DNA of 64,000 bases from NCBI GenBank assembly GCA_963695165.1, contig CAVOGF010000004.1:304326-368325 (forward strand), given 5' to 3'. Of the stretch, positions 8,153 through 32,651 are shown piece by piece; position 1 is the first letter of the stretch, and each line of letters opens with the position of its first letter. The position numbers were made by a program, and so were the translations under genes. Source of the stretch: an uncultured Chitinophagaceae bacterium. Its GTDB lineage: Bacteria; Bacteroidota; Bacteroidia; Chitinophagales; Chitinophagaceae. Under the pieces are notes generated by a model, which saw nothing but the letters and a program-made list of their open reading frames with translations, had not been told where the DNA came from and searched no databases.

Positions 8153-8374
8153 ATGGAAACTGTAACAGTTGAATTAATCAATAAAAAGGCCCTAAAATTA
8201 TTAGAGGAGCTTGAAGAACTTGCTATAATCAAGCTCCATAAAGCAGAAGAAAAAAAGGTTGTAAATGATAAAGCATCGAAATACAGGGGCTTTATGTCGA
8301 CAGACACAGCTGATGCTTTTTTAAAAACCACTGGGGAAAGCAGGAATGAATGGGAACAAAGATTTCCTGTTTAG
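8153..8374 (+). CDS. small hypothetical protein
   Basis: The ORF starts at internal ATG 8153 (METVTVELINKKALKLLEELEELAIIKL...). It is convergent with mcrC. No recognisable catalytic motif. Confidence 0.45.
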   Translation: METVTVELINKKALKLLEELEELAIIKLHKAEEKKVVNDKASKYRGFMSTDTADAFLKTTGESRNEWEQRFPV

Positions 8375-9402: not shown

Positions 9403-12343
9403 GACTTATTCTTGAAAGCTGTTCAGTCATTTCAGACGCTTTATTTGTATCATCAAACCAGATTTCCTCAAGTAAAGGTTTAAGCTCAAAATTCAAAACA
9501 TCATTCCACCATGTTATTTCATCTTCGCCTGAATTATAGGTGCAGAAATAGCTATAACCAATTTGAAATCCTTCACCAAGATCCATTTTTATTTTTCGGT
9601 TCATTTCTGTAACGGAGAAACAAATGTGTTCAATCATGCGATTTGAAACTCCTTTAAACTCAAGAAAAGAACGAAAAGCAATCCCATAATCCGGTTTTAG
9701 TGTAATAAATGCAAATCGTCTTCTTAGTGCATAATCAATTATTGCCAATGAACGATCGGAGGTATTCATGGTACCAATGATATGCAGATTTTCAGGAACA
9801 TAAAAACGGTCCTCTTCATCTTCGGCATAAGTTAATTTCAGCGCATATTTTTCATCTCTTTTATCCGATTCGATTAACATCATTAATTCCCCAAAAATTT
9901 TACTCAGGTTTCCCCGGTTTATTTCGTCAATGATGAAAAAGAATTTTTTCCCAGGTTGATTGATTGCTCTTTGACAAAAAGTATAAAAAATTCCATTTCT
10001 CAATTCAAATCCACTTTTTGCTGTAGGCCGTAACCCCTGGATAAAATCCTCATAACTATAGGATTGATGAAATTGTACCATTTCAATCTGCGAATTATTA
10101 ATTTCACCCATTATTTCATAAGCTAACTTTCGGGCAATAAAAGTTTTTCCAACTCCCGGTGCACCTTGTAGTATGATGTTCTTTTTACGTTTCAATAGGG
10201 ATACAGCCTGTAAAAAATTGGCTTGACTAATAAAAGGTTTGTCCACATCATTTTGAAAATCATACTTTTGAATGCCATCACTTATAGAAATCCCTTTTAC
10301 AAAATCGTTTCTTTCATCAATTACACTTCTGATTAAATTGTATTCCGCTTCTGAAAGTTTAAATAAACTTCCCTGATTATTTTTAAAAACCTCACAATTT
10401 TCAAGTCCTTGTAAATCTTTTAACTCACTCCAATAAACAGGATAAGAAAGCTTTTTTATCAGTTCAAATTCAATTTCTTCTTTATTGTTCGATTGAAAAA
10501 CACCTCTGGTTCCTTCGTAAATTGCCTTTATTGCCTTTGAAGGAGAACTTTCGTATCCTAATACAATATCACCTTCTTTGAAAGCTTCAAAGTATTTATA
10601 AATTCTTCTTTTATTTCCATCGTCGTTATGCGTGGTATAAGTTTGTAATTCTCCCTCAGAATGGCTGCCAATCTTCCAGATTTTCGGGTTTGCGTTAAGC
10701 CACCAAAAATTGACTTCTTTTTCAAGGACACTTTCTTCTACTATATTTTCCTCATAAAAATTCAAATCAGATAGAAATGCGTTTACTCCTTTTTCGGTCA
10801 ATTTCCAAAGTCCTCTCGTTTCTGCACTAATAAAACCTAAATCCTTAAGGCTGTTGCGGGCCCAATCAATTTGATTGAAAATTCTAGACGTTCCCGACTT
10901 CAGCTTTATATTAATTTCAGATTCATTAATACCTAGCTTTTTGGCTACTAAAGGCCTTACTTGTGTTGGGGTTCCTGAACCGCCTAATTCCTGCAGAACT
11001 TGTAATAATGGTTTCCAAAATCTTACAAATTGAGATCCTGAATTTTTAAATTCCTCCTTTTCAATATCCCCCTCTTGTGGGTGCAAAACAATTAAGCTTT
11101 CAAAAGGAAGTTGATATTCGTTAAATAACGATATTAATTCAGGATATATTCTGACATATTCACTCAAAAGAAAGCGCCAAACTTTTGTCGGACTAAATGT
11201 ATCCGGCCGGAAAAGATTTTTAATTTCTTTTAATTCACTTTTGTATTGATAAACCTTATCGGTTATCCATTTTATTTTTCGCCGATGATTGTAACTTCCT
11301 GCATCTTCATAATAATATTCTCCCTCAATAATGCCTATTCCAATACAGGTATTTACACCTTTGTTAGCAAATACAACATCTCCAATATTGGCGGTTTTTA
11401 ACAGCCATAAATTCCATGTCTGATTGGATACACTTTCCGGAGTAAAACCTACTGCTTCATTTATTTCAGCTCTGGTATTGTATTGTGAAAGATCGCCTAA
11501 ATCTGCACTACTAAAATTAATTGCAACTATATTTTGTGAATAAAAATCATTCCATTCAGATGCCTGACTGCCTGGTGCAAATTTGAAATAATTCCTGCTT
11601 TCTTTATTTAATTTTAAAATCTCCGGTTTAAGTTCTTTTAAATAATCTAATGCATCTTTAAAGGATAATACGGTTTTAATCTTGTCTTGCACTGGATTTT
11701 TTAATGAATGTCCCGCAACCATTCCTGCCTGGGCAGGCGAACCCAGATTTAAAAAAAATTGATAAGCATCTTTATGAGATTGACGGGTTGCAGGAAACAA
11801 AGCAATCCAGCACCTGATATCTCCAAAATTTGCAGCGCCAAAAAAATCAACAGGCTTATCTTTGGATTTATAATCTTCAAGATCCAATTCCTTTAATAAT
11901 TGTTCAGAAATCTGGTTTAAATAAAGACGCGTGGTTTCTTTATCCTTACCTCTATAGAAATAAACAAAAAAGATTCTCCATGGAATATTCCAGGCTGTAA
12001 AATAGTCGCCCTTCTGGTTTATTTCTTTATAATTTTTTAAACTATCCAGGTACTCTTTTGAATAAGCAGAAAAATAATTCATATCGCGCTCCCTGATCTT
12101 CTCCTTTACAGTTTCTATTAATTCCAGGCTTACCTTTTCCCCTTCTAACAACTGCCTTGCTATTTCGGCGCGCAATAAATTTACGGGCTGAAAGCCAACA
12201 TCAGTGCCGCCATATTCCTTAAAAATATCTTCAACAACCTTTTGAGGTAATTCGTTAATAGCTTTATATAAAGTTTCGGTATCTTCTGATAACTGCCTGT
12301 AACATTTCGCCAGATCAGTTATAAATTGAAATTGCATCTGCAT
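9386..12343 (-). CDS. mcrB: McrB-like AAA+ GTPase with extended multi-domain N-terminus
   Basis: Walker A LQGAPGVGKTF, McrB signature IIDEINRGNLSKIFGELMMLIE, and GTMNTSDRS. The N-terminal ~690 aa include an Mrr_N-like wHTH (FWKPLLQVLQELGGSG...GLWKLTEKG) and an EVE/PUA-like module (FWWLNANPKIW...EGDIVLGYESSPSKAIKAIYE). Confidence 0.88.
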   Translation of the reverse strand: MQMQFQFITDLAKCYRQLSEDTETLYKAINELPQKVVEDIFKEYGGTDVGFQPVNLLRAEIARQLLEGEKVSLELIETVKEKIRERDMNYFSAYSKEYLDSLKNYKEINQKGDYFTAWNIPWRIFFVYFYRGKDKETTRLYLNQISEQLLKELDLEDYKSKDKPVDFFGAANFGDIRCWIALFPATRQSHKDAYQFFLNLGSPAQAGMVAGHSLKNPVQDKIKTVLSFKDALDYLKELKPEILKLNKESRNYFKFAPGSQASEWNDFYSQNIVAINFSSADLGDLSQYNTRAEINEAVGFTPESVSNQTWNLWLLKTANIGDVVFANKGVNTCIGIGIIEGEYYYEDAGSYNHRRKIKWITDKVYQYKSELKEIKNLFRPDTFSPTKVWRFLLSEYVRIYPELISLFNEYQLPFESLIVLHPQEGDIEKEEFKNSGSQFVRFWKPLLQVLQELGGSGTPTQVRPLVAKKLGINESEINIKLKSGTSRIFNQIDWARNSLKDLGFISAETRGLWKLTEKGVNAFLSDLNFYEENIVEESVLEKEVNFWWLNANPKIWKIGSHSEGELQTYTTHNDDGNKRRIYKYFEAFKEGDIVLGYESSPSKAIKAIYEGTRGVFQSNNKEEIEFELIKKLSYPVYWSELKDLQGLENCEVFKNNQGSLFKLSEAEYNLIRSVIDERNDFVKGISISDGIQKYDFQNDVDKPFISQANFLQAVSLLKRKKNIILQGAPGVGKTFIARKLAYEIMGEINNSQIEMVQFHQSYSYEDFIQGLRPTAKSGFELRNGIFYTFCQRAINQPGKKFFFIIDEINRGNLSKIFGELMMLIESDKRDEKYALKLTYAEDEEDRFYVPENLHIIGTMNTSDRSLAIIDYALRRRFAFITLKPDYGIAFRSFLEFKGVSNRMIEHICFSVTEMNRKIKMDLGEGFQIGYSYFCTYNSGEDEITWWNDVLNFELKPLLEEIWFDDTNKASEMTEQLSRISHENSN

Positions 12344-13466: not shown

Positions 13467-13520
13467 ATACCGGAATTCTTTTTTACTGTGTTTGCTTGAA
13501 TAAAAACAATTTTCTATTTA

Positions 13521-13568
13521 GCATTAAACAATATAACAATTAAACAATGTAACAATTAAACAATTAAC
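13521..13568. repeat. short-period repeat (AACAATT words)
   Basis: cattaaacaatataacaattaaacaatgtaacaattaaacaattaacc lies directly after the stop of the MFS gene. The same family occurs at 23571-23620. Confidence 0.8.
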
Positions 13569-13569
13569 C

Positions 13570-14790
13570 CTATTCCTCCACAAAATTCAAATCCTTGCCA
13601 AAAGTTTCTTTAATGTTTATAATGGCAAAGATACCAATGGCCATGACAATGATACCGGTAATCCATGCACCGGTGATATAGCTGGTATGGGAACGTAGTT
13701 GCTGAAATAAAATTAAAATCAAAGGCAGCATTCCTCTTACCATATTAGGTATGGTTGTGGCCGCCGTTGCACGAATATTGGTGCCAAACTGTTCTGCGCC
13801 CATGGTTACAAATATTGCCCAGAAACCGGTTCCAAAACCAAGCCCGGCACAGATCAGATACATTCCGTTTGCAGAGCCGTTGTATTGCGCAGTAAAAAAC
13901 AAGATAATAAAAATGGAAGTAATCCCGTAAAATAAATACAATGCCTGCTTCCTGCTTTTAAACCATTGACTAACCAAACCAACCGCTATATCTCCAATGG
14001 AAATAGCCACATAAGCATACATAATTGATTTTCCCGAATCAATGGGCTCCTGAATATTCATTGCTTTTCCGAATTCATTGGAAAAAGTAACGAGTACGCC
14101 AATAATATACCATGTTGGCAATCCAATTAAAATACTGAGCAGGTATCTCTTAAGCCTTTCTTTTTTGGCAAACAGCATAAAAAAATTACCGCGTACTACC
14201 GTCATCTTTTTTATCTCATGAAACATGTGCGATTCAAAAACGGAAACCCGAAGGATCAGCAACAAAAAGCCCAATCCGCCGCCAATAAAAAAGCAGGTGC
14301 GCCAATGAAAATGCTCTTTAATAAAAAAAGCGAATACAGCTCCGGTTAATCCCAATCCGGCTACCAGTGAAGTGGCAATACCTCTTTTTTCTTTTGATAT
14401 CAATTCTGAAACCAGGGTAATGCCCGCGCCCAATTCGCCAGCCAATCCCAAACCTGCAACAAAGCGGACCCATCCATATTGATGCACCGTTGTTACAAAA
14501 CCATTTGCAATGTTCGCAATTGAATACAGTAAGATGGAACCGAATAATACGCTTAATCTTCCTTTTTTATCGCCGATGATTCCCCAGATAATGCCACCCA
14601 ACAGCAATCCAACCATTTGCATACTCAGGATCCATTCGCCATCATCTCTTATTTGTATATCCGTAAGTCCTATCTCCCTTAAACTTGGTACACGGATTAT
14701 TGCAAACAATAAAAGATCGTAAATATCCACGAAATACCCAAGCGCCGCTACCAATACCGGTATGGATAAAATTTTTTGTTGTTGAGTCAT
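13570..14790 (-). CDS. MFS transporter
   Basis: 406 aa with ~12 predicted hydrophobic segments and a GDKKGR loop motif between TM2 and TM3. Confidence 0.8.
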   Translation of the reverse strand: MTQQQKILSIPVLVAALGYFVDIYDLLLFAIIRVPSLREIGLTDIQIRDDGEWILSMQMVGLLLGGIIWGIIGDKKGRLSVLFGSILLYSIANIANGFVTTVHQYGWVRFVAGLGLAGELGAGITLVSELISKEKRGIATSLVAGLGLTGAVFAFFIKEHFHWRTCFFIGGGLGFLLLILRVSVFESHMFHEIKKMTVVRGNFFMLFAKKERLKRYLLSILIGLPTWYIIGVLVTFSNEFGKAMNIQEPIDSGKSIMYAYVAISIGDIAVGLVSQWFKSRKQALYLFYGITSIFIILFFTAQYNGSANGMYLICAGLGFGTGFWAIFVTMGAEQFGTNIRATAATTIPNMVRGMLPLILILFQQLRSHTSYITGAWITGIIVMAIGIFAIINIKETFGKDLNFVEE

Positions 14791-15726: not shown

Positions 15727-17031
15727 TTAAGCCAACTCAGGATGTTTCATCAATTCCTCAATCTCTTCCACTGTAATTGGAATATTTTTCATCAGGTCGG
15801 TATTACCGGTTTTAGTGATCCAAACATTGTTTTCAATGCGAATCCCCATTTGCTCTTCTTCAATATAAATACCGGGTTCCACTGTTAGCAACATACCAGG
15901 TTGAATCGGTTCAGTTCTGGTACCAAGATCATGCACATCAATACCTAAATGATGTGAAATGCCATGATACAAATATTTTTTATAGGCAGGATTTTCCTTG
16001 TCTTCATTTTTAATATCGGATTTTTTAAGCAGCCCGATCTTTTGAAAAATCTTTGTTGCTTCGTCGCCTACCTTTTCGGTATAATGCACCAGGGTAATAC
16101 CAGGCTTTAATAAGCTTTTGGCATATTCATGCAAATGCAGGCATGCATTGTACACTTCCTTCTGGCGCTTGGTAAACTTTCCGTTTACCGGAACGGTGCG
16201 GGTAAGATCTGCCGCATAACCGCCATATAACGCGCCAAAATCCATGAGTACCAATTCTCCGGATTTACATTCTTCATTGTTAAAAACATAATGCAAAGTT
16301 CTTGCCCGGTCGCCACTTGCAACGATGCTTGCATAAGCTTCACCACTGGCGCGGTTGCGTAAAAACTCATGGAATATCTCGGCTTCAATTTCATATTCCA
16401 TCACACCGGGCTGTATAAATTGCAAGAGCCGCCTAAAGGTTTTTTCCGTAATGTCAATTGCTTGTTGGGTTACTTCAATTTCATATTTGGTTTTGATCGA
16501 ACGCAACCGTTTCATGATGGTTGCAGCCCGCTCATAATGATGGAGCGGATACCGTTGTTTCATCTGCTGAACAAAGCGGTAATCGCGGGTTTCCACCAAT
16601 GGAGCATCTTTACGGTCATTTTCATTTGTATTCAGATAGATTTTATCAGCCAAATGGATCCAGGATTGCAAAAGCGCATCCAGCGCATCGAGCCATACTA
16701 TTGTTTCAATGCCTGAAATTTCAGTCGCTTCTTTTGCACGCAATCTTCTGCCATTCCATTTTTCTTTTAATTCATTCGGGCGCATCAATACCAATACTTC
16801 GCGGTATTTATGATCAGGATTGTCGGGGAATAAAACTACCATCGTATCCTCTTGTTCAATACCGCAAAGCCAGTACAGATCACTGTTTTGTTTAAATTTA
16901 TATAAAGCATCCCCATTCGCAGGCACTTCATCATTGCTATTAAAGATGGCTATACTGCCGGGTTTCATTTCTTTCCTGAACCGCTTCCTGTTTTCAGAAA
17001 ACAGTGTTGGATTAATGGGTAAATGTTTCAT
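15727..17031 (-). CDS. Xaa-Pro aminopeptidase (M24B family)
   Basis: C-terminal M24 fold motifs DFGALYGGYAADLTRT, HGISHHLGIDVHD and VEPGIY. The start is placed at the ATG at 17031 (MKHLPINPTLF). The longer listed ORF runs through a perfect hairpin. Confidence 0.85.
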   Translation of the reverse strand: MKHLPINPTLFSENRKRFRKEMKPGSIAIFNSNDEVPANGDALYKFKQNSDLYWLCGIEQEDTMVVLFPDNPDHKYREVLVLMRPNELKEKWNGRRLRAKEATEISGIETIVWLDALDALLQSWIHLADKIYLNTNENDRKDAPLVETRDYRFVQQMKQRYPLHHYERAATIMKRLRSIKTKYEIEVTQQAIDITEKTFRRLLQFIQPGVMEYEIEAEIFHEFLRNRASGEAYASIVASGDRARTLHYVFNNEECKSGELVLMDFGALYGGYAADLTRTVPVNGKFTKRQKEVYNACLHLHEYAKSLLKPGITLVHYTEKVGDEATKIFQKIGLLKKSDIKNEDKENPAYKKYLYHGISHHLGIDVHDLGTRTEPIQPGMLLTVEPGIYIEEEQMGIRIENNVWITKTGNTDLMKNIPITVEEIEELMKHPELA

Positions 17032-17094
17032 AGAAATAATTGAGATTGCAAGATACAGGAATAATCCTTTTTTGAGGAAGTGCGTTTGGAATAA

Positions 17095-17128
17095 AAACCA
17101 GGAAGGTTTTTTGAAACCTTCCTGGTTT
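17095..17128. terminator. perfect 15-bp hairpin at the left edge of the cassette array
   Basis: aaaccaggaaggttt-tttg-aaaccttcctggttt. It lies downstream (minus sense) of the cassette array and upstream of the aminopeptidase gene. Its right half plus flank is repeated at 17195-17228. Confidence 0.5.
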
Positions 17129-17431
17129 ATCAAATATTAAAATGCGGGGGCGTTTCCAATTTTTAGACAAAACATTCAACAATGGAATAAAATAAGGTTT
17201 TTGAAACCTTCCTGGTTTACCAAATACTGTACTTTATGCAGCGATATGCCTTAGTAAAATAAATTCCAGTTGTTGGGCTGTGATGGAAGCATCATTTTTA
17301 ACTTTATAGTGAGCATTTCAAAAGTTTATTTCTCCAGTCTTTTATATTAAAGCGGAAAGCCAGCGTCTTTGCACAAAAGCAGTTTTATCTGGTTGTTTTT
17401 TTTAATTGAGGGGTAACGATGCTTATGTCCT

Positions 17432-17613
17432 AAAAGAAACACAGGCTGAAACGCCTGCCGCCAAAAGGTTTCAGCCGCTATGAAAAAAAAAGGCGCCCCG
17501 CCTGCTTCAAAATCCTACAACCGCTTTACGACAAATCCATAAGTACCTGCTTTTCCCGGTTTCGTTCAACAAGGGTTTCATTTCTTGTTCGTTGGGCAAA
17601 ACGAAATCTTTAG
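17432..17613 (-). repeat. cassette-associated composite repeat, copy A (partial: part of middle module plus core)
   Basis: Aligns with 22120-22300. Core at 17558-17608. Ends 14 nt from the higA stop. Confidence 0.85.
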
Positions 17614-17626
17614 TGATTGCCTGCCG

Positions 17627-17926
17627 TTAAGCAACTTTTGTGCTGATTGATTTTATTGTATTGAGCATTGCGCTTTTAGCGGACATCTCTTCTTCAATGT
17701 CAAAATCGTCTTGCAAACCAAGCCAAAATTTAGCGCTATTGCCAAAGTATTTACTAAATCTAATGGCTGTGTCAGCCGTAATTCGTCTATTGCCTTTTAC
17801 TATTTGGGAAACTCTGGTCTGTGGAATTTCTATGTCTTTTGCAAGCTTATACGCTGATATATTAAGAGGTTTTAGAAATTCTTCAATGAGTACTTCGCCA
17901 GGGTGAATATTTTTGAGCTTTGCCAT
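17627..17926 (-). CDS. higA: HigA family antitoxin (XRE-type HTH)
   Basis: MAKLKNIHPGEVLIEEFLKPLNISAYKLAKDIEIPQTRVSQIVKGNRRITADTAIRFSKYFG is a classic HigA/VapI sequence. It lies 11 nt downstream of higB. Confidence 0.9.
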   Translation of the reverse strand: MAKLKNIHPGEVLIEEFLKPLNISAYKLAKDIEIPQTRVSQIVKGNRRITADTAIRFSKYFGNSAKFWLGLQDDFDIEEEMSAKSAMLNTIKSISTKVA

Positions 17927-17937
17927 ATTTGAAAAAA

Positions 17938-18218
17938 TTAATGATAATCGATTATTTTAACTTCGGAAACATTGCCCGAATTCCATTTGAAAACAATCCT
18001 CCATTGATCATTTATCCTAATGCTGTAAAAGTCTTTGGAGTTTCCTGATAGCTTTTCAAGTCTATTGGAAGGGGGAATTCTAAGTCAGCCAGGTCAACAG
18101 AGTTATTTAGCATTCTTAACTTCCGTCTTCCGATATTTTGAATTTCATTTGGTAATTTCTTGACTCTATCGCCATTCCATACTTTTTCTGTTTCTGAATT
18201 TCCAAATGATACTATCAT
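17938..18218 (-). pseudogene. higB: HigB (RelE-fold 'killer') toxin, frameshifted in a homopolymer
   Basis: Listed ORF 18012-18218 gives MIVSFGNSETEKVWNG...DLEFP. After the G5/C5 run at 18071-18075 another frame reads NRLEKLSGNSKDFYSIRINDQWRIVFKWNSGNVSEVKIIDYH*, a typical HigB C-terminus ending at 17938. Confidence 0.8.
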
Positions 18219-18710
18219 TGCTACTGTCTAAAGTTACTAACGTCAAAAGTAAGCAAATGATTTGAGTATGCAAAATCTCAAAATAAAGGAAAGCTGATGG
18301 CTCGCAACTGTTTCGGGCTTGGCGATCGGGCGTACTTAGAAGCACTAAACTGTCAACCAGCAAGAAACCACGAAGGCCATACGCTTGTCCAATGAGGCAA
18401 GCGGGCAAAGGATCTTGTGCACCGGCTTCACCCCAAGACGCCAGCTAAAACCCTTGACGGGATGCGGTTTCAGCATCTCGTTTCAAAAGAAGGCTCCCTG
18501 CCTGCTCCGGGGCTTTGCGTTGGGCGGCGGATAACCTGCACCAAAGTTTAGCCCAGCGCTAAAATAATAGAAAGCAGGAAAGTTCATGTTTGTACTTCAG
18601 CCCGCCTGATGCAGTACCCCCTGTTGAACTAAACCTACGGTAGCCTTCCGCAACTATCCGTAAATTTAGCGGTTACTAAAACAATTTTATTATGACAACG
18701 AAAAAAAAAT

Positions 18711-18853
18711 CGACGGAAGAACTGAGGCACAACAAATATCTCAATATCCTACAACCATTTTACGACAAATCCATAAGTACCAGCTATTCCCAGGTTTCGT
18801 TCAACAAGGATTTCATATCTTGCCCGTTGGGCAAAACGAAACCTTAGTAATTA
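18711..18853 (-). repeat. cassette-associated composite repeat, copy B (lacks middle module)
   Basis: cgacggaagaactgaggcacaacaaatatctcaa is joined directly to tatcctacaacc...gggcaaaacgaaaccttagtaattag. Core at 18793-18843. Ends 6 nt from the hepT stop. Confidence 0.85.
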
Positions 18854-18859
18854 GTAGTT

Positions 18860-19198
18860 TCAGTTTTCCTTAAGTACACCTTGTATTTGGTCATAAAGCT
18901 CAGGAATTTTGTTTTTGAACACGTCCCAAACAATTGAGTAATTCACTCCCATATAGTCATGAATTAGCCGGTCTCTCATTCCGCCTATGTTTTTCCATTG
19001 AATTGTGTTCCATTTGACCTTAAATTCCGCCGGAATTTTCTTTGTCGCTTCACCAATAATTTCCAAACTTCGCACAACAGCCCGCTTCAAAGTCTCGTTA
19101 TCAAGAAAATCTTCTTTTGATAACCCCTTATTGACCGAAAGCAAATATTCGCATTCGTCCGATATATGCTTCAGAAATTCGACTGGCTTCTTAGACAT
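18860..19198 (-). CDS. hepT: HepT-like (DUF86/HEPN) toxin
   Basis: HEPN R-x4-H motif in GGMRDRLIHDYMGVNY. It overlaps the upstream nucleotidyltransferase gene by 8 nt. Confidence 0.85.
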   Translation of the reverse strand: MSKKPVEFLKHISDECEYLLSVNKGLSKEDFLDNETLKRAVVRSLEIIGEATKKIPAEFKVKWNTIQWKNIGGMRDRLIHDYMGVNYSIVWDVFKNKIPELYDQIQGVLKEN

Positions 19199-19493
19199 AC
19201 AGAACGCTCTTTAGTATCTTAGGACCGATATGTGGGCTTAAACCATTTTTAGTAACGATTTCAACTTTCTCATTTTTAAAAAGGTTCTCAAATATATCGT
19301 AAACAGCCATGTAGTTGTCAAAATTTTCTTTGTCAGGTTCAAAATCAATCAGTAAGTCAATGTCACTGCCTATTAATTGCTCGTCACGTAAATAAGAGCC
19401 AAATAAACCAATATTAGATACGCCATATTTTGACAAGTCAGACTTGTGAGTTTTCAGAACAGAAATAATATTTTCTTCGTTGTCATGCAACAA
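19191..19493 (-). CDS. mntA: MNT-type nucleotidyltransferase antitoxin
   Basis: GLFGSYLRDEQLIGSDIDLLIDF matches the minimal nucleotidyltransferase GS-x-R...D-x-D motif. Confidence 0.85.
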   Translation of the reverse strand: MLHDNEENIISVLKTHKSDLSKYGVSNIGLFGSYLRDEQLIGSDIDLLIDFEPDKENFDNYMAVYDIFENLFKNEKVEIVTKNGLSPHIGPKILKSVLYV

Positions 19494-19675
19494 AGATAAA
19501 ATTACTTCGGCGATTTGATACTGTGCAGAAAAATTACTGCCAACGCCTCCGGTTTGCTGTCTGTAGCGGCATTCAGCGGTTCGTCAGCCCCAATATAGTG
19601 ATCATGTTTATTGATTTTCTGTTGCTGAATGACTTACGTCCGCCGCTAATGGCAGCAAACCGCATTTTTTAACTA

Positions 19676-19901
19676 AAAAAATCGCCGGAAGAATAAGGTA
19701 CAACAAATACCTCAACCGTGCCTGTCGTGAAGTTAATGGATTTGCCGAAATTTTTCAACGTTTTGAACATAAAGATACACGGGATAAAACGCCCGCCGCC
19801 AAAGGGTTTCAGCCGATATGAAACTACGACATAAGTACCTGCTATTGCCCAGTTTCTTTCAACCAAGGTTTCATTTCTTGCCTTTTGGAAAAACGAAACC
19901 C
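19676..19901 (-). repeat. cassette-associated composite repeat, copy C (internal ~45-bp deletion, degenerate core)
   Basis: Aligns with 22030-22165 and 22215-22294. Core at 19851-19900 reads agtttctttcaaccaaggtttcatttcttgccttttggaaaaacgaaacc. Confidence 0.8.
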
Positions 19902-19991
19902 ATTTGTAGCGATTTCCTCGTCCGTGTAAATACTACGTCTCCACCTCTTAATGTCGTCAACATAAAATGCAAGTGTGGCTTTGGTTGTCAT
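19842..19991 (-). CDS. 49-codon ORF (hypothetical) whose 3' third is encoded by repeat copy C
   Basis: The ATG at 19991 gives MTTKATLAFYVDDIKRWRRSIYTDEEIATNGFRFSKRQEMKPWLKETGQ*. It is the only ORF in the 19902-20118 cassette. No homology is recognised, so it may be fortuitous. Confidence 0.25.
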   Translation of the reverse strand: MTTKATLAFYVDDIKRWRRSIYTDEEIATNGFRFSKRQEMKPWLKETGQ

Positions 19992-20118
19992 AAAATTCTA
20001 AAAAACGTCAAATTTATATAGTGGTTTCCCAAATTAGTATGCGATAAATATATGGATTATTTGCCGCAAATAAGCGGTGAATGATTTGATTTTCACCGCA
20101 GGAAAAGGCAGAGAATGG

Positions 20119-20187
20119 CTCGGTTTCGTTCAACAAGAGGTTCATTTCTTGCCTGTTGAGCAAAACGAAACCTTAGTTATTAGCGTT
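20119..20187 (-). repeat. cassette-associated repeat, copy D (core only)
   Basis: ctcggtttcgttcaacaagaggttcatttcttgcctgttgagcaaaacgaaaccttagttattagcg. The stop codon of the DHFR-like gene (20173-20175) lies inside its TTAGTTATTAG tail. Confidence 0.85.
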
Positions 20188-20745
20188 CGTTGTTTTTTCT
20201 GATATCGGTTCATAATAAAATACTGTTGCACCGGAATGTAGGGATTTTGTCTTAGCGAGTTTGAAAACAATCCTGTCCTTTATTTGGTCAAACAATGGCA
20301 GCCCTTTTCCTTCTACGACAGGATGAATACAAATTTGAAATTCGTCAATAAGATTACTATTTAACAGTTGAATGATCAAACTCCGGCTTCCAACCAAAAT
20401 GTCCTTTCCTGGTTGTTGTTTGAGTTCCAAAACTTCTTCGTCAAGAGGTCTGTTTGCAAGTTTTGCACTCTCCCAGCCTGTGTCTTTTAGTGTGTTGGAG
20501 AAAACAAGTTTTTGAATTTTGTCTATTGAAATTGCAAAGTCGTCCATTGATTTTTCACCAGAAGGATTTTTCAATAATGATTGCCAAAATTGCATGAGTT
20601 GGTAGGTTGTCCGACCATATAAAATAATTCCTGCATTATCTATAAGTTCAGAATAATGTTGATGTAGTTCCTCATCAGCAACTCCGGCCGTATGGTCGCA
20701 AAATCCGTCGAGTGTCATATTGATTGCAGCAATTAGTTTTCTCAT
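20173..20745 (-). CDS. dihydrofolate reductase family protein (RibD C-terminal domain-like)
   Basis: MRKLIAAINMTLDGF...ILYGRTTYQLM...DILVGSRSLIIQLLNSNLIDEFQICIHPVVEGKGLPLF is the typical pattern of this family. Confidence 0.8.
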   Translation of the reverse strand: MRKLIAAINMTLDGFCDHTAGVADEELHQHYSELIDNAGIILYGRTTYQLMQFWQSLLKNPSGEKSMDDFAISIDKIQKLVFSNTLKDTGWESAKLANRPLDEEVLELKQQPGKDILVGSRSLIIQLLNSNLIDEFQICIHPVVEGKGLPLFDQIKDRIVFKLAKTKSLHSGATVFYYEPISEKTTNANN

Positions 20746-20794
20746 ATTCTAATTTTTAGTCGTCTGTATTACACGGGGGCGTCCGTTCACCCTA

Positions 20795-21015
20795 CCGTGA
20801 AGTTAATGGATTTGCAGAACTGCTGCAACGTTTTGAACGTAAAGAATACAGGGCTAAAACGCCCGCGGCCAAAGCTTTAGCCGCTACGAAAAAAACAGGC
20901 GCCTGACTGCTTCAATATCCTACAACCGCTTTATGAAAAATCCATAGGTACCTGCTATTGCCCGGTTTCGTTTCATTTCTTGCCCATTGGGCAAAAGGAA
21001 ACCTTAGTTATTATT
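20795..21015 (-). repeat. cassette-associated composite repeat, copy E (lacks first module; 11-nt deletion in core)
   Basis: ccgtgaagttaatggatttgcagaactgctgcaacg...cccggtttcgtttcatttcttgcccattgggcaaaaggaaaccttagttatt. Ends 10 nt from the mazF stop. Confidence 0.85.
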
Positions 21016-21025
21016 GGTGGTAGTT

Positions 21026-21352
21026 TTAGGCCACAAATGTTTCTTGAATTACGTTTTTCACTTTCTCAATTTCCTTGTCGGTCAATGATTCAAAACGTTT
21101 AACAATTCTTCTTCTGTCAATTGTTCTAATTTGGTCCACCGCAATCCAACCTTTAGTAGCTTTATGTTTAACTTCAACTCTTGTCGGGTACGGTTTTGAG
21201 CTACTTGTCATTGGTGCAACTACGACTGTCTGCAAATACTTGTTCATTTCGTCTGGCGACAGCACCACACAAGGTCTTGTTTTTTTCATTTCGCTTCCAA
21301 TCGTTGGATCAAGGTTAACCAATACGATTTCATATTGATTTATTTGCTCCAT
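21026..21352 (-). CDS. mazF: MazF/PemK family type II toxin endoribonuclease
   Basis: YEIVLVNLDPTIGSEMKKTRPCVVLSP...VVVAPMTS is a typical MazF/PemK sequence. It overlaps mazE by 13 nt. Confidence 0.9.
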   Translation of the reverse strand: MEQINQYEIVLVNLDPTIGSEMKKTRPCVVLSPDEMNKYLQTVVVAPMTSSSKPYPTRVEVKHKATKGWIAVDQIRTIDRRRIVKRFESLTDKEIEKVKNVIQETFVA

Positions 21353-21588
21353 TCTTCAAAGTTTTCATCTTCAAAAACATCGTCCATCAAAAGATGGTCA
21401 TCACCGTTTTCATGCATCTTTTTAAACGCTTTCTCCCAATTTTTTCGTGGTTCTGGTTTTGGCTTTAAAATGATATAATCTTTTTCAAGAATTAATTCAA
21501 CTTTGTCACCGATACTGTATTTTTCAAGAATGGTCTTGGAAAGCCTAATTCCTTTTGAGTTTCCAATGTTGATGATTGAAAGTTCCAT
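21340..21588 (-). CDS. mazE: AbrB/MazE/SpoVT family antitoxin
   Basis: MELSIINIGNSKGIRLSKTILEKYSIGDKVELILEKDYIILKP is a swapped-hairpin AbrB-type fold, followed by an acidic C-terminal tail. Confidence 0.85.
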   Translation of the reverse strand: MELSIINIGNSKGIRLSKTILEKYSIGDKVELILEKDYIILKPKPEPRKNWEKAFKKMHENGDDHLLMDDVFEDENFEEWSK

Positions 21589-22029
21589 AATTTCCAGTTT
21601 TGTTATTACAAAGTAATTACAATTTTCTCAGCCTTCCAAATTATCAAAATAGATTTTCGTTTCGCAAATAGTGTCCGGAAAAATTACCGCTAAGATGGGT
21701 AAGGGAACTCATAGGCAAAACGAAAAAGAAATCAGCCATTTAATACTTCAAAGCATGGCTAATCCTGGGTTACAACCCTCACTCAACAACGGAAAGCTCT
21801 AATCCTACACGGGAACTCAGCTCATTTACTTGTCAGTCAAAAATAACTCGAAAGCTCCCACAAATCTACTATGTTAAATGCGGGGGCTTTTAGTGGGGGC
21901 TTTCGGCTATTGTTCTTAATGTTGAATTAGCTAGCAGCTTTTCTTTGCAACTACGATTTATGTTAGCTTGTTTACACCTCTTTAAAATGTAAGATAACTC
22001 TATCATAAATCGTCGACGATGGTAAGACT

Positions 22030-22313
22030 GCCGGAAGAACTGAGGTACAACAAATACCTCAACCGTGCTTGCCGTGAAGTTAATGGATTTGCCGAACTGC
22101 TGCAACGTTTTTAACGCAAAGAAACACAGGCTAAAACGCCCGCCACCAAAAGGTTTCAGCCGCTACGAAAAAAAACAGGCGCCCTGCCTGCTTCAATATC
22201 CTACAACCGCTTTACGACAAATCCATAAGTACCTGCTATTCCCGGTTTCGTTCAACAAGGGTTTCATTTCTTGCCCGTTGGGCAAAACGAAACCTTAGTT
22301 ATTAGCGGCAGCC
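22030..22313 (-). repeat. cassette-associated composite repeat, copy F (most complete, ~285 bp)
   Basis: It contains all three modules: 22030-22062, 22063-22196 and 22197-22313. Core palindrome at 22244-22294. Confidence 0.85.
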
Positions 22314-23217
22314 CTGTTCTTTGTTGCCCGAAACCTGCTTAGTTATAATTAGCCCCTTTGCATTTTCTCAAGCAATAAGCATGTTCAAACTAATTTCATT
22401 CTCTGTCCACAGAAGGCTATTTAGAATAATTAAAAGTAATGGAAATTCTTTGTAAAGATATCCAAACGATAAAGCCGCTTTTTATAAATGTTGTTCAGCT
22501 TCTTCAGCATTTCAACACACTATTTTAGCGGCTGATACAGATGGCTCTTAATAGAAATAATTTTTATAAATAAAGTAATTACAGCACCTACAACTCCACT
22601 CCAAAAAATCAAAAACTTATAATATACATATCGGGAATTATATTTAATACTTTTCGGATCCAAGTCCTCGTCTACACGTCTTTTTAGGAAGTCATTAAAT
22701 CTTTCTTAGGAATTAATAACATGAAAATTATTGTTGACACGTACACAATAATAAATATGACTAACAAGCTATTCATGGTAAGCGATTTATTTCATTTCGT
22801 TATTTTCTTACAACATTACTAAAGACTTCTTTTATTCTAAATATTTACTTAAATATAGTAGTTTCTCCAACAGTTTTATATTCAAGTTATACCGGAAATA
22901 AGAACAGTTTTTTTTCCTCAACTGTCAGCTAACGTTTATCAATTACCCACTTCGGGTCTTTCAAAAAGGGTTGCCCATAACTCAAATATATGCGAAACTT
23001 TTTACCACTCTTGCTTTTTTTAACAAAAATATTATTGATTTCCAAATGGTTAAACCGGTTTTGCGAAAGACATATTTAAAATTTATAGCTTTCGTAAAGC
23101 CAACTTGTATTTTTCAATCCTCCTCCAATATCTTTCCAAATTTCTGCCCTTAAATTTCAAATGCGTTTTATCCGGCACAACAACCAGCTAAAACGCATTT
23201 GAAGGATGTTTTTGAAT

Positions 23218-23300
23218 CATGCTGAATAGAATTCCCAACAGTACAAGAGTGCGACGCAACGAAGACCCACAAAGGTTTGCAGCCGGGTACAAAAAAACCA
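23218..23300 (-). repeat. ~100-nt intergenic element, copy 3 (inverted, more diverged)
   Basis: The reverse complement tttttttgtacccggc...ggtcttcgttgcgtcgcac...gttggga...ttcagc aligns with 25048-25152 and 51386-51494. Confidence 0.55.
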
Positions 23301-23533
23301 ATCTCTGGAATTTAGGGATGAATAATATTAGGCAAACGACATTCTTAATTTTTAATAAAATATTCAACCACTTTGTGGTTGTTTCTCGCATCTATTTTAT
23401 ACCCCGGATTTCATCCGGGGCTACTCACATTTTAATCCCTTCGGGATTAAGAACGCCCCAAATAAAATCTGATGGGCGCGGCTGGAAAAATGCCGCCGTT
23501 TCCCCTTCGGGATTAAGAATACCCCACAAAAAT

Positions 23534-23553
23534 GCCCCGCTTTTGTGCGGGGC
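23534..23553 (-). terminator. GC-rich hairpin downstream of the MacA-like gene
   Basis: gccccgc-ttttgt-gcggggc forms a 7-bp GC stem. On the minus strand it is followed by ATTTTTG. It lies 68 nt past the stop at 23621. Confidence 0.5.
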
Positions 23554-23570
23554 GATTCCAATTATTTAAA

Positions 23571-23620
23571 CGAAACATTCAACAATTCAGCAATTAAACA
23601 ATTAATCAATTCAACAATTA
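23571..23620. repeat. short-period repeat (CAACAATT words)
   Basis: cgaaacattcaacaattcagcaattaaacaattaatcaattcaacaatta. Confidence 0.8.
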
Positions 23621-24990
23621 TCAACTTTTCTTAAACTGCTGAATGAGCTGCTCCTTAGGCACCACTTTTACCTTTGTACTATCCTGCAATTGTTTGCTCA
23701 CCACATCATAAGGGCCTGTTACTACTTCATCACCGGCTTTTAAACCGTGTGTAATTTCTATATAATTAATATCCTGGATATCTGTTTTAACGGGCACCTT
23801 TCGAACGATACCATCTTTCTGAACCACAAAAACAACTTCCTCCATATCATCATCAGAAGATACGCTTGCAACCTGGCTGACATTGTTGTTATCATGTCCT
23901 TTTTTTCCATGTCCGGAGATTTATTGTTCTTCTTATCGCGGGTTGTAACGGCATTTAAAGGCACCGTAAGCGCATTGGTATGCGTCTTGGTTTGAATATC
24001 CGCGTTTGCGGTCATATTAGGACGGAATGGAAAAGGTTTTCCTTTACCCAACAGATCTTTATAACTATCCGATAAAAGCCGCACATGCACCTGGTAGTTG
24101 GTAACAGTGGTGGAAGAAGATCCGCCTGAAGACTGTAAAGCAATCAACGGGTTAGCGATCTTATATACAACTCCTTTGAATTTGCGGTTACTATACGCAT
24201 CCACTTCCACAATGGCGCTATCGCCGATGCGCACTTTAGGAATATCATTTTCACCCACATCCACCTGCACTTCAATGCTGCCCAGGTCCGCGATACGCAT
24301 CATTTCGGTACCGGCCATTTGCGCTGTACCCACTACCCTTTCGCCTTTTTTCACCGCCAGTAAACTTACAACGCCATCCATAGGCGCCGTGATGGTTGCA
24401 CGGTTCACATCTTTACTCGCGCGGTTCAGGCTTGCCATTGAACTTTGTACCAAAGCCTGGTTGGCTTTAATGGCATCCGATGCGGCCTGATAATTGGCCC
24501 GTGCCGATAAATATGCCTGTTGCGCCTGCTCAAATTCCGATTGTGAAATCACTTTTTGATCCAGTAAGGTTTTTTGCCGGTTATATGCCGCCTGTGTCTG
24601 ATCTAATGTCGCTTTTAATGCTTCCAGCTGCGATTGAGAATTAGACACCTGCGCTTCCGATTGGGAAACAAGCGCTGCGGCCTGGTCGCGCTGGGATGCA
24701 TAAATATCAGCATAAATTTTAGCAAGCACCTGCCCTTTTCTTACCGTATCGCCTTCAGCTACGGTAAGCTCCACAATTTCGCCGGAGATATCCGGGCTTA
24801 CCTTTACTTCCACTTCAGGATAAATCTTACCACTGGCGCTCACGGTTTCAATGATGGTACGATCGGCCGCTTTTTCCGATGAAACTTTTGTGCCTTCGTC
24901 TTTTCCAAAAACGCCCGCCTTACTCAATGCAACCATCGCTATTACCAGCACGATAAGAATGCCGATGATCCATTTTAATTTTTTACTCAT
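23621..24990 (-). pseudogene. efflux periplasmic adaptor (MacA/HlyD_D23-like), frameshifted in a T7 run
   Basis: The 410-aa ORF 23758-24990 loses similarity after ...SPDMEKK. Across the T7/A7 run at 23900-23906 the other frame reads EKKGHDNNNVSQVASVSSDDDMEEVVFVVQKDGIVRKVPVKT... and continues as ORF 23621-23845, the normal C-terminal beta-domain. Confidence 0.8.
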
Positions 24991-30200: not shown

Positions 30201-30459
30201 ATGTTTTTTCTAAAGAAGACTGGTTTAAAACCATTTTGTTACATTTTACAAAATTTACTTTTCGGTAACAGTTCTGGGTGGCAGTGATGTGGCACTCCAT
30301 AAAAAAATCCGTAAGCCGAATGTAATACAAAAGTAATTCAAGACCTATAAACGGTTTTATAATATCAACTCTTTTTACAAGGGCTATCAAAACCTTATAG
30401 AATTGTTTTCTTTAAAATAAAATTTTTATCCATCTTATCAACCATTATTTTTGCATCGA

Positions 30460-30640
30460 ATTTGGTTTCTCCGCCTCAGGCGAAGAATTAAAAGGGAAGA
30501 CCGGTGTAAGTCCGGCACTATCCCCGTAGCTGTAAATGATACCTTTTAAAAAAAGGAACATCTTAAAAAAAATAGTCACTGTCTGTAAAGGATGGGAAGG
30601 CTTTAAGATGCATCATAAGTCAGAAGACCTGCCCGGTTCC
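30460..30640 (+). promoter_or_regulatory. cobalamin (B12) riboswitch
   Basis: Conserved core TTAAAAGGGAAGACCGGTGTAAGTCCGGCAC (~30488-30518), CCCCGTAGCTGTAA, and a B12-box-like AGTCAGAAGACCTGCC (30618-30633). It lies directly upstream of a TonB-dependent receptor gene. Confidence 0.85.
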
Positions 30641-30766
30641 ATTATTTAATCGCTGAGCTTTCGGGTGAAAAGCCGGAGATGTAATTTGTCTTACTGCAGA
30701 AGGCTTATTTCATTTCTACTATTTTCATTGGAAGCTCACTCCTACAATCACATTTTAAACCGGAAG

Positions 30767-32651
30767 ATGAGCATGAAGAAAATTATTTACAGTTTATTAG
30801 CCCTCAGTTTTTCATACGCAGTATCAGCGCAGGATTCCACACAAAACAATTATCTCGAACAGGTAGTGGTAACAGCCACAAAATACCCTGTAAAACTGCG
30901 GCAAACTGCCAGGCTCGTAACCATTATTACGCAGGAACAAATAGAAAAAAGCGGCGGCAAAGATTTAGCCCAACTGTTGAACGAGCAGGCCGGAATTGTT
31001 GTCAGTGGCGCCAACAGCAATTCTGGAAAAGACAAGGCCGTTTACATCCGCGGCGCTAAAAATGATTATACATTAATACTGATTGATGGCGTTCCCGTGG
31101 CGGATCCTTCCGGTGTTGGCGGCGCTTTCGACATCAGGCTTCTGCCATTAGAAGGCATTGAAAGAATTGAAATACTTAAAGGAAGTCAATCTACTTTATA
31201 TGGTTCTGATGCGGTGGCAGGGGTGATTAATATCATCACCAAAACAAGCGGCAATAAAAAGATCGCATTGGCCGGCGGAGCATCGTATGGAAGTTATAAT
31301 TCCTTCAATGGAAATGCAGGTATCAACGGTCATACTTCCATTGTAGATTACAACTTTAATTACAATTATGCAGCAACAGATGGTATTTCAGAAGCAACCG
31401 ATACCACGGGTAAGGGAAATTTTGATAAAGACGGTTTTATCAAACAATCTTTCAATGGATCCTTGTCATTTAAAGCCGGGGAAAAATTAAAGATCTCACC
31501 TTATTACCGTTATTCTTATTATAAAGGCGATTTTGATGCGGATGCTTTTACCGATGGCAATAACAAGTTTGATTACCTGCTCAACAATACCGGCGCCATT
31601 GCAACTTATCAATTACCCAAAGGAAGCATTACAGCCAATTACGGTTATTCTTTTGCAAAAAGAAACTACACCGACGATTATGGCAGCTATGGATTCAGGG
31701 GACGCTTTCAAACAGGTGATTTATACATGAATCAAAAGCTGAATGACCAGGTGCAATTATTAGCCGGCGTCAATCTGCAAAGCTATCGTTTGCTGGATAC
31801 TACCTTGGAGAAAAAAAATCCTGAAACATCCATTGTCAGCCCTTATGTATCTTTTTTAATCAATAGTGGCAATGGCGTAATGATGGAAATCGGAAGCCGG
31901 TACAACCATCATTCCCGCTTTGGAAGTTATTTTACTTATGATGTCAACAGCGCATACCAGCTCAATGAAAAGATCAGGTTCTTTGCGCATGTTTCCACAG
32001 GATTTAAAGCGCCTTCGGTAAGCCAGTTATTCGGCTCTTACGGGGCCAATCCCGATCTGAAACCGGAAAAATCAACCAGCCTGGAAGCCGGAGTACAAAC
32101 AAACTTCCCGGACAATAAATTAACATCTGACGGCTACGGCATTCAACCGCGAAATCAAAGACCTGATCGCTTATATCGGCAATTACCTGGTAAATGTGGA
32201 TTTCCAGCAGGATAAAGGCATAGAACTGGAAGCCATTTTTAAACCCAACAGCAAATGGAATTTTAATGGCTCCTACACTTATTTAACCGGCGTTATTCAA
32301 CAAACAAGAAATGGAAAAGACACCAGCTATTTCAACCTGATCCGCCGTCCTAAAAATGCAATAACAGCTATGGTAGGTTACCAGGTTACCAATAAATTTT
32401 ATATCAGCGCCACATTCCAGAGCTTTGGCAACCGAACCGACCTGTTTTTTGCGCCTCCTACTTATAAATCAACAGAGGTGGATTTAAAAGCTTATGCTTT
32501 ACTGAATGTTTATGCAGAATATAAACTATGCAAAAACAGGATCAATTTATTCGCGGATGTGAAAAACCTTACTAACAGTTCGTACACCGAAGTGTATGGT
32601 TTTAATACACTGGGAACTAATATAAACGCAGGTATCCGTTTCAAACTATAA
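30767..32651 (+). pseudogene. TonB-dependent receptor (BtuB-like), frameshifted
   Basis: The ATG at 30767 gives MSMKKIIYSLLALSFSYAVSAQ, followed by a plug domain (VVVTATK...). ORFs 30665-32215 and 32196-32651 lie in different frames. Near 32120-32130 the second frame reads LTATAFNREIKDLIAYIGNYLVNVDFQQDKGIELEA. The C-terminus ends ...GIRFKL. Confidence 0.82.

Follow-up and report, generated by a model that had tools for sequence, protein, structure and literature searches.

Organization of the repeat array

The window, as we call the whole 64-kb stretch of DNA from an uncultured Chitinophagaceae bacterium analysed here, carries six copies (A–F) of a repeat between the pepP gene (15727–17133) and an HlyD-family gene, where they alternate with small genes of the minus strand. 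The core of the repeat is a 51-nt imperfect palindrome, which an earlier note had described as a folded single-stranded recombination site resembling the attC sites of integrons; the sequence and coordinates of the core in copy F (22244–22294, GGTTTCGTTCAACAAGGGTTTCATTTCTTGCCCGTTGGGCAAAACGAAACC) had been given exactly. The analyses reported below indicate that the palindrome is most probably the right, ori-side terminal region of a rolling-circle insertion sequence (IS) of the IS91 family, which is widespread among Chitinophagales and inserts at one position of attC-like sites.

Near-copies of the 51-mer with no more than three mismatches were found at 17558 and 18793, with none expected from shuffled sequences, and a repeat search of the window brought the number of cores to six (17558, 18793, 19851, 20122, ~20963 and 22244). 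All copies are co-oriented and lie within 5 kb (17.4–22.3 kb); a profile search detected no others in the 64 kb. The repeat blocks that they share are 62 to 282 nt long and thus extend far beyond 51 nt. The alignment of the copies bore out what had been noted before, namely that copies C and E are degenerate, with 11 nt missing from E, and that the two 7-mers of the core (GTTCAAC and GTTGGGC) are kept in copies A, B and D, as they are in F, with GTTGAGC in D. Only copy B has both ends; the five others are ori-anchored fragments (62–282 nt) that end at differing internal points. Mini-elements with both ends, like copy B, are also present at loci L012, L044, L112 and L095. The stop codon of the RibD_C open reading frame (ORF) is the TAA of AATAACTAA in copy D. 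The features of the array are listed in Table 1.

Positions 22030–22119 of the window align with the left part of the full-length elements L059, L057, L089 and L093, including the first recombinase codons, and positions 22188–22305 align with sequence on the 3′ side of the L016 transposase gene. The window copies are internally deleted, non-autonomous derivatives of an IS91-type element. Neither an integrase nor a transposase was found among the flanking ORFs scanned. No Rfam family corresponds to the repeat, either at the gathering threshold over the whole window or at E up to 5 over 17.0–23.8 kb. Two other ideas, that the repeat is a 3′ gene end duplicated by tandem island integration or a tmRNA-like tag (prompted by GCNNNNAATAACTAA), were dropped once the link to the IS was seen.

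Table 1. Repeat copies, attC-like remnants and cassette genes in the window.
Feature	Position	Strand	Description
Possible R′-type CGTT	17415–17418		near copy A
Copy A	17433..17618	+	ori end kept, ter end absent; hairpin 17574–17608 with two inner-stem mismatches
Cassette ORFs	17627..21588	−	each ends 0–22 nt before an ori end
HTH gene	17627–17926	−	cassette
Two small ORFs	18012–18408	−	cassette
Rest of attC-like site interrupted by copy B	18409..18625	−	starts AAC-A-GGGGGTACTGC; 3′ end degenerate
Copy B	18626..18852	+	complete 227-nt mini-element; ori hairpin 18809–18843; ter hairpin CTAAATTTACGG...CCGTAGGTTTAG + GTTC 18626–18669
HepT + MNT	18860–19493	−	cassette
attC-like remnant downstream of copy C	19537..19674	−	arms TGCGGTTTGCTGCC...GCAGCAAACCGGAGG, then CGTT-GGCAG; from comparison with IS-free sites
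Copy C	19675..~19905	+	ori-anchored, degenerate; internal deletion; start of recombinase gene kept; fused to attC remnant
Copy D	~20120..20181	+	ori-end fragment alone; hairpin 20138–20172
RibD_C	20173–20745	−	cassette
Copy E	20746..21012	+	ori-anchored; 11-nt deletion in ori end; hairpin kept (20970–21003); ter end absent
MazF + upstream partner ORF	21026–21588	−	cassette
Copy F	22022..22303	+	IS-derived; ori end and first ~30 recombinase codons kept; transposase gene deleted; ter end absent
51-nt core of copy F	22244..22294	+	inverted-repeat copy GGTTTCGTTCAAC + 3 variable nt + 35-nt hairpin
35-nt subterminal hairpin of copy F	22260..22294	− (best-folding strand; cassette-sense = IS bottom strand)	conserved
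Target flank CTGC-CGCT (cassette sense)	22304..22311	−	directly outside ori end of copy F; GC-NNNN half of attC-like 5′ box

Relatives of the repeat and the linked genes

A pattern scan of one genome per species returned 112 loci, about 60% of which were chance matches, and the true copies were separated by their context. They number about 45 and all belong to Chitinophagales (Ferruginibacter, Segetibacter, Ginsengibacter, Hanamia, metagenome-assembled genomes (MAGs) of the Saprospiraceae type, and others). Another 26 loci came from a metagenome scan, and a profile search over the loci collected gave 79 copies. In cassette sense, which is the minus strand of the window, the consensus reads AATAACTAA-GGTTTCGTTTTGCCCAACGGGCAAGAAATGAAACC-nnn-GTTGAAC-GAAACC, and its first 45 nt are near-invariant among genera.

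A transposase gene, complete or truncated, precedes the core by ~160–215 nt at 11 loci, and the relative orientation of the two never changes. The linked ORF encodes an IS91-family transposase (NCBIfam NF033538, 423.6 bits at a cut-off of 125) with the Pfam domains Y2_Tnp (5.7e-58) and Zn_Tnp_IS91 (6e-31). More than 8000 proteins are related to it at E < 1e-20, typically on contigs of 2.2–2.8 kb, the size expected of a repeat that assembles alone.

All full-length copies have a gene for a tyrosine recombinase immediately ahead of the transposase gene. The best solved relatives of this recombinase are a XerC-like protein and the integron integrase IntI4. The integron-integrase model TIGR02249 scores 160 bits (cut-off 265) and is matched in two stretches, which is consistent with a recombinase without the IntI-specific insertion. 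Recombinases of IS91 elements have been placed in an ‘integron-like’ subgroup lacking that insertion (preprint 10.1101/542381).

A group II intron reverse transcriptase/maturase gene was seen at L016 (2426–3679, minus strand), ~1 kb from the IS91-type element of a Chitinophagaceae MAG. Group II introns are known to associate with cassette arrays.

Anatomy of the full-length element

Full-length elements with both ends were recognized at L059, L139, L140, L145, L146 and L148 and measure ~2.3 kb. Read in cassette sense, which corresponds to the bottom strand of the IS, they begin with AATAACTAAGG, followed by the 35-nt hairpin, three variable nucleotides and GTTGAACGAAACC. Then come a spacer of ~160–215 nt, the transposase gene and the Xer/IntI-like recombinase gene, both antisense, and, at the far end, the ter hairpin and GGTTTAGTTC. 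At the left (ter) end a conserved imperfect palindrome, CTAAATTTACGG...CCGTAGGTTTAG, precedes TTC; it was found at 17 loci and in copy B of the window, and one variant of it, TACGG/CCGTA to TTCGG/CCGAA, is compensatory. The sequence GGTTT(C/A)GTTCAAC stands at both ends in inverted orientation. This ori/ter anatomy matches the published description of IS801 and IS1294, where subterminal palindromes mark ori and a single palindrome adjoins GTTC at ter (PMC13181058). Two other placements of the left end, at the start-codon region of the recombinase gene or at TAGTTCAAC together with a ‘long stem-loop module’, were dropped; the module is the interrupted attC-like site.

Within the IS-derived repeat, the cassette-sense strand has a hairpin resembling a terminator, GCAGGCAGGGCGCCTG and then T8, at 22168–22191 (minus strand) and at the same position in copies A and E. 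It is followed by a second hairpin, GGCTGAAAC...GTTTTAGCC. Together, both hairpins could terminate read-through from the upstream cassette.

The conserved hairpin

The 35 nt at the 3′ end of the core form a hairpin that is conserved on its own. Among 39 distinct cores, 97.3% of cells are paired, with three double changes, all in one sequence. The same proportion, 97.3%, was obtained with 15 sequences that include the diverged full-length elements L139, L140, L145, L146, L148 and L081; here six pairs (14 cells) are compensatory, a result reached by 0 of 500 shuffles. A sister IS whose transposase is 55% identical has the same layout of inverted repeat, three nucleotides and hairpin, with a different hairpin sequence.

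The hairpin of copy F folds at −10.5 kcal/mol on the minus (cassette-sense) strand and at −8.6 kcal/mol on the plus strand. A G·T wobble at pair 7–29, present in 14 of the 15 sequences, occurs on the cassette-sense strand only. This strand is the bottom strand of the IS and appears to be the one that folds. The bottom strand is also the active one in IS91 (PMC13181058). No covariation between the three variable nucleotides of the core and the 4-nt flank was visible, as regards a guide model of the IS608 type.

Target sites of the element

In nearly every copy, the stop codon of a same-strand ORF is found within ~30 nt upstream of the ori end. The flank on this side is C(T/G/A)(G/T/A)C-NNNN, immediately before AATAAC, in 57 distinct copies. 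On the ter side the flank is always AAC-A, after which comes a long imperfect palindrome ending in ...CGTT. Elements in Flavisolibacter sp. BT320 (L139), L140 and L145 sit in runs of co-oriented small accessory genes, among them Arr, beta-lactamase, NADAR, Hfx_Cass5, GNAT, HigBA and PemK. The IS-free intergenic sites of these three arrays consist of a stop codon, GC-NNNN-AAC-A, a 5′ arm, a loop, a 3′ arm and C-GTT-NNNN-GC. Since GC-NNNN-AAC-A is contiguous in them, the element has inserted between NNNN and AAC of the 5′ box. The position GC-NNNN|IS|AAC-A thus corresponds to the 5′ (R″-like) box of the long palindromes that follow each cassette ORF. Comparison of NNNN|IS|AAC-A with IS-free NNNN-AAC-A, that is, of non-orthologous sites with a variable 4-mer in the same arrays, suggests that no target duplication takes place.

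The long palindromes measure ~117–191 nt and have an extra conserved GC outside each 4-mer. Over 19 distinct sites, the complementarity of an arm to its own partner is 26.1 versus 12.7 ± 3.5 to the arms of other sites, and the own arm is the best partner in 15 of the 19. In L139, four of six consecutive pairs of sites are related by reverse complementarity between GTT-NNNN-GC of the first and GC-NNNN-AAC of the second, among them the pair that spans the IS (GTT-AGCG-GC, then GC-CGCT|IS|AAC). The relation is found in one or two of three pairs in L140 and does not hold in L145. Such complementarity between consecutive sites would be the signature of once-circular cassettes, and, as far as sequence can tell, it is these long neighbouring palindromes, and not the 51-mer, that behave like attC sites. 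The sole integrase in their vicinity is the recombinase carried by the IS, and no canonical IntI was seen.

Within the window, remnants of attC-like sites follow copies B and C, and a possible CGTT lies near copy A (Table 1). A scanner for AAC...GTT palindromes found no intact attC-like site there, although at usable thresholds it is unspecific and gives ~10 matches per 64 kb in shuffled sequence.

Two side observations concern such junctions. L023 and L056, from a Segetibacter MAG and Hanamia caeni, contain homologous lipoprotein-like ORFs ending 7 nt before the core and share the junction ATGCCCAGC-ACCT|AATAAC, but their IS subfamilies differ beyond the core (nnn is GGT in one and ATA in the other). 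The pattern points to one of two events, separate insertions at an identical site or an exchange inside the core. At 4004–4159 of L139 (minus strand), downstream of the DUF8412/OmdA gene, TAGTAAACTAAGGCTGTTTTT looks like an ori end, AATAACTAAGGTTTCGTTTT, that has decayed; insertions of greater age may thus be common in such arrays.

Proposed mechanism and weight of the evidence

Rolling-circle transposition of a single strand through a bottom-strand circle is suggested, indirectly, by the better folding and the G·T wobbles of the bottom strand. On the analogy of IS91, a Y2 HUH transposase provided in trans would recognize the ori hairpin on this strand, nick at the element boundary and displace the strand up to GTTC at the ter end, and a single-strand circle would form. 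The circle would then be inserted into single-stranded target DNA without target duplication. Folded or unwound attC-like sites would be natural single-strand targets, which would explain the strict orientation and position of the insertions as well as the presence of all six window copies inside the array. For the interrupted site, the GTTC end of the element rebuilds an RYYYAAC box (GTTC+AAC). The sequences themselves show the linkage to the transposon, the anatomy with two ends, the covariation of the hairpin on the bottom strand, the single position of insertion and the attC-like character of the target. Cleavage of a single strand, the circle intermediate and the division of labour between the two enzymes are all points that we infer from the analogy.

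Several observations weigh against identifying the palindrome as an IS91-family end that targets attC-like sites. The tblastn comparison of the transposase and recombinase of the element with the 64-kb window gave no significant match, the only hit being a remnant of the recombinase N-terminus (E = 0.1–0.9). As both genes are absent from the window, any activity of its copies would require a further copy in another part of the genome. Five of the six copies have no ter end and most of the attC remainders are eroded, so that the array is possibly a fossil. A shared AA leaves an uncertainty of 0–2 nt as to where exactly cleavage would occur. The four nucleotides adjoining the ori end are variable and loosely RYYY-like, whereas the classical targets of the IS91 family are CTTG or GTTC. 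No orthologous pair of empty and filled sites was found, and no exact protein match to pepP or RibD_C of the window turned up; the MazF cassette of L145, considered as an empty-site control, was rejected, being 28% identical to the MazF of the window and not orthologous. The attC-like status of the target sites is an assignment made in the present analyses and should be taken as putative. Finally, the full-length element L146 has a divergently oriented gene adjoining its ori end; its GC-NNNN flank and, at ter, an attC-like arm are nonetheless present.

It is conceivable, though doubtful, that the ~2.3-kb element is more than a parasite of arrays and constitutes the mobile integrase module of a Bacteroidota integron-like system. 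The recombinase would then excise and integrate cassettes at GC-NNNN-AAC...GTT-NNNN-GC sites, the HUH transposase would move the module between attC-like sites, and the hairpin end with the rebuilt GTTCAAC box would be part of an attI-like junction. If true, this would explain arrays without a resident integrase (CALIN-like) and would provide a living model of the way in which an IntI-type recombinase became tied to folded single-strand sites.

Alternative explanations

The features on which the attC reading of the core had been founded were re-examined. All of the proposed pairings (9, 4 and 3 bp) are possible, but the minimum free energy fold of the DNA keeps the 9-bp outer stem alone; inside it, TTGCCC pairs with GGGCAA around a GTT loop, instead of CAAC with GTTG and GGG with CCC (z from about −3.4 to −4). 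Over 39 distinct cores, 77% of the cells in the proposed helices are paired, with no covariation above shuffles, and the pair G16–C33 is present in 8 of the 39. The distal arm of the outer stem does not follow the compensated changes of the hairpin in L139 (hairpin GGCTTC...GAAGCC but distal GGAACC) and L140 (hairpin GCTTTC...GAAAGC but distal GAAACC); hence the 9-bp stem is not the selected pairing. The RYYYAAC and GTTRRRY ends occur at chance frequency in the window (127 7-mers observed versus 129 expected). Ordered pairs of them within 51 nt are in excess (16 versus ~5 per 64 kb by chance) because four copies of one repeat are each counted on both strands. The two caveats attached to the original reading were well founded: the 7-mers are not complementary to each other, with only CAAC and GTTG able to pair, and the core is too short. 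Known attC sites are 57–141 nt long, and the conserved unit here is just 35 nt.

The view of the palindrome as an attC site of exceptional shortness, on which an integron integrase acts, is therefore hardly tenable and is already contradicted by these tests, even though it lies directly after cassette ORFs, matches RYYYAAC and GTTRRRY on both strands and folds significantly better than shuffled sequences. The structure of attC sites is kept while their sequence varies, whereas the core is nearly invariant among genera (~90% identical). Short copies have lost the GTTGAAC box and kept the hairpin. The core is physically linked to the gene for an HUH Y2 transposase, the genuine attC-like palindromes adjoin it and are interrupted by it, and no integron integrase is encoded in the 64-kb window. 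None of the structural marks of an attC site was recognized in the 51 nt, neither R″/R′ boxes nor an L″/L′ stem with extrahelical bases. What survives of the earlier note is that a folded single-stranded site, serving recombination or transposition, is very probable; its identification as attC does not survive. One link to that idea is left: GTTCAAC in the core is the inverted-repeat copy of the other end of the element, where GTTC abuts the AAC of the target and restores a box of the RYYYAAC type.

Three further explanations concern the enzyme, the origin of the fragments and the level at which the hairpin acts. The ends could be substrates of the element’s own Xer/IntI-like tyrosine recombinase, instead of or besides the HUH transposase; a circular junction GTTC(AA)|(AA)TAAC would mimic attI/attC and recombine at AA|C of the attC-like box, and the element would enter and leave cassette arrays by site-specific recombination. 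The retention of the recombinase gene with the transposase gene in all full-length copies speaks for this, as do the box rebuilt at the ter end and the insertion position, which can be written as NNNNAA|C, the position cleaved by IntI in the R box. The enzyme is also Xer/IntI-like, with the recombinases of IS91 elements assigned to an integron-like subgroup (preprint 10.1101/542381). We nevertheless regard it as unlikely, given that the two ends differ from each other as ori and ter do in IS91, GTTC being at ter, that no dyad-symmetric core site is evident at the junction, and that L057 has both ends and an essentially complete transposase gene but has lost most of its recombinase gene; the score of 160 bits against the integron-integrase cut-off of 265, in two stretches consistent with the missing IntI-specific insertion, points the same way. 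Still less probable is that the ori fragments are products and drivers of one-ended rolling-circle transposition, with each fragment mobilized together with its downstream ORF(s); the array would then be the work of the transposase and not of cassette recombination. A precise ori end is indeed common to copies A, C, D, E and F, which stop at differing internal points (62–282 nt), all six copies are co-oriented within 5 kb and confined to it, and fragments of this kind are an outcome of one-ended or prematurely terminated events in IS91 (PMC13181058). However, the same junction of ORF stop and GC-NNNN is found beside full-length elements and in IS-free attC-like sites, so that the ORF preceding an ori end is to be assigned to the target cassette and not to cargo. 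Copy C, moreover, is fused to a recognizable attC remnant, which fits a later internal deletion, and the truncated ends show no consistent terminal tetranucleotide. An action of the hairpin as RNA, as a stabilizer in the 3′ untranslated region or as a terminator for the upstream cassette gene, is very unlikely. Its location 0–30 nt after stop codons on the sense strand, the G·U-compatible wobble on that strand and the GC hairpin with T8 ~70 nt further downstream (22168–22191) would suit it, but no T-run directly follows the hairpin, no Rfam family matches, and the hairpin is an integral part of the transposon at a fixed distance. The strand bias is predicted equally well by folding of the bottom-strand DNA of IS91 (PMC13181058).

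Other features of the window

The entire 6.4-kb cassette array is flanked on both sides by a 41-nt direct repeat (78% identical; 17143–17183 and 23546–23586). One copy stands between the end of the HlyD-family gene and a terminator hairpin, the other immediately before the start codon of pepP, and the repeat looks like a duplicated intergenic target of the whole island. A/T-rich tandem motifs with an 8-nt period (CAATTAAA-like) adjoin gene ends at 13514–13582 and 23560–23628. The HlyD-family gene (23621–24990, minus strand) is apparently split into the overlapping ORFs 23758–24990 and 23621–23845, which suggests a frameshift or a sequencing error. Between its end and copy F lies a 1.35-kb AT-rich stretch (22308–23660) with no convincing ORF, a 30-nt direct repeat (23437–23466 and 23503–23532) and several GC hairpins. 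Farther away, a McrBC-type restriction pair (8371–12343, minus strand) comprises a McrC-like ORF and a 985-aa fusion with the domains Mrr_N, EVE and AAA_5, and a cobalamin riboswitch (30446–30650, plus strand; 104.7 bits at a gathering threshold of 31.5) precedes the ORF 30665–32215.

Significance

According to IntegronFinder 2, integrons are almost absent from Bacteroidetes, with only In0 elements and one complete integron in Salinibacter (PMC9024848). The genomes of Chitinophagaceae studied here show cassette arrays with attC-like sites, whose cassettes include toxin-antitoxin pairs, Arr, beta-lactamase and the Hfx_Cass5 protein, and an IS91-family element of great abundance has colonized these arrays, at one defined position of the site. 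The element would represent a third, mechanistically different class of mobile elements targeting attC, in which a single-strand HUH transposase is linked to folded cassette sites. As it brings an IntI-like recombinase without the IntI insertion into cassette arrays, the evolutionary relation between Xer proteins and integron integrases becomes directly testable. In practical terms, assemblies break at the mini-elements, which could also pass for attC sites in scans based on repeats.

Comparison with known systems

Like IS91, IS801 and IS1294, the element has a Y2 HUH transposase with an N-terminal zinc-binding domain, an ori downstream of the transposase gene with one or more subterminal palindromes, and a ter upstream of it with a single imperfect palindrome adjoining GTTC. 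Target duplication, absent in this family, is probably absent here too, and the bottom strand apparently folds. It differs from the family in its target, a fixed GC-NNNN|AAC-A position in attC-like palindromes and not bare CTTG or GTTC, for which reason the insertions sit right after cassette ORFs; in the Xer/IntI-like recombinase gene carried upstream of the transposase gene; and in the abundance of miniature derivatives with both ends. An IS91-family end is thus known, and its apparent targeting of attC sites would be new: no prior report of it was found in the searchable literature, which likewise yielded no description of integron-type arrays in Chitinophagaceae.

ISCR elements are also IS91-like HUH elements tied to integron structures, with oriIS downstream of the transposase gene and truncated ori-only copies. 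ISCR1 is situated in the 3′ conserved segment, not inside attC sites, and is not known to carry a recombinase gene. Unlike ISCR, the present element targets the cassette recombination sites themselves, and its hosts are Bacteroidota. ISs of the IS1111-attC group and group IIC-attC introns occupy a defined position of attC in a fixed orientation and accumulate in cassette arrays. The element shares the defined position and orientation with them, but theirs is a DEDD transposase or a retro-element, while here an HUH Y2 transposase is combined with a tyrosine recombinase. The relation of group II introns to integrons has been discussed elsewhere (PMC7923331).

The interrupted sites differ from integron attC sites in their length of ~117–191 nt, in the extra GC outside each 4-mer and in having no canonical IntI seen beside them; they resemble attC sites in following cassette ORFs, in starting with NNNNAAC and ending with GTTNNNN, in their long covarying imperfect arms and in the complementarity of neighbours. 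Miniature inverted-repeat and palindrome-associated elements derived from IS200/IS605 are short and non-autonomous, have hairpin ends only and are mobilized in trans. The derivatives described here, unlike these, have an IS91-family element as their source and occur at cassette recombination sites only.

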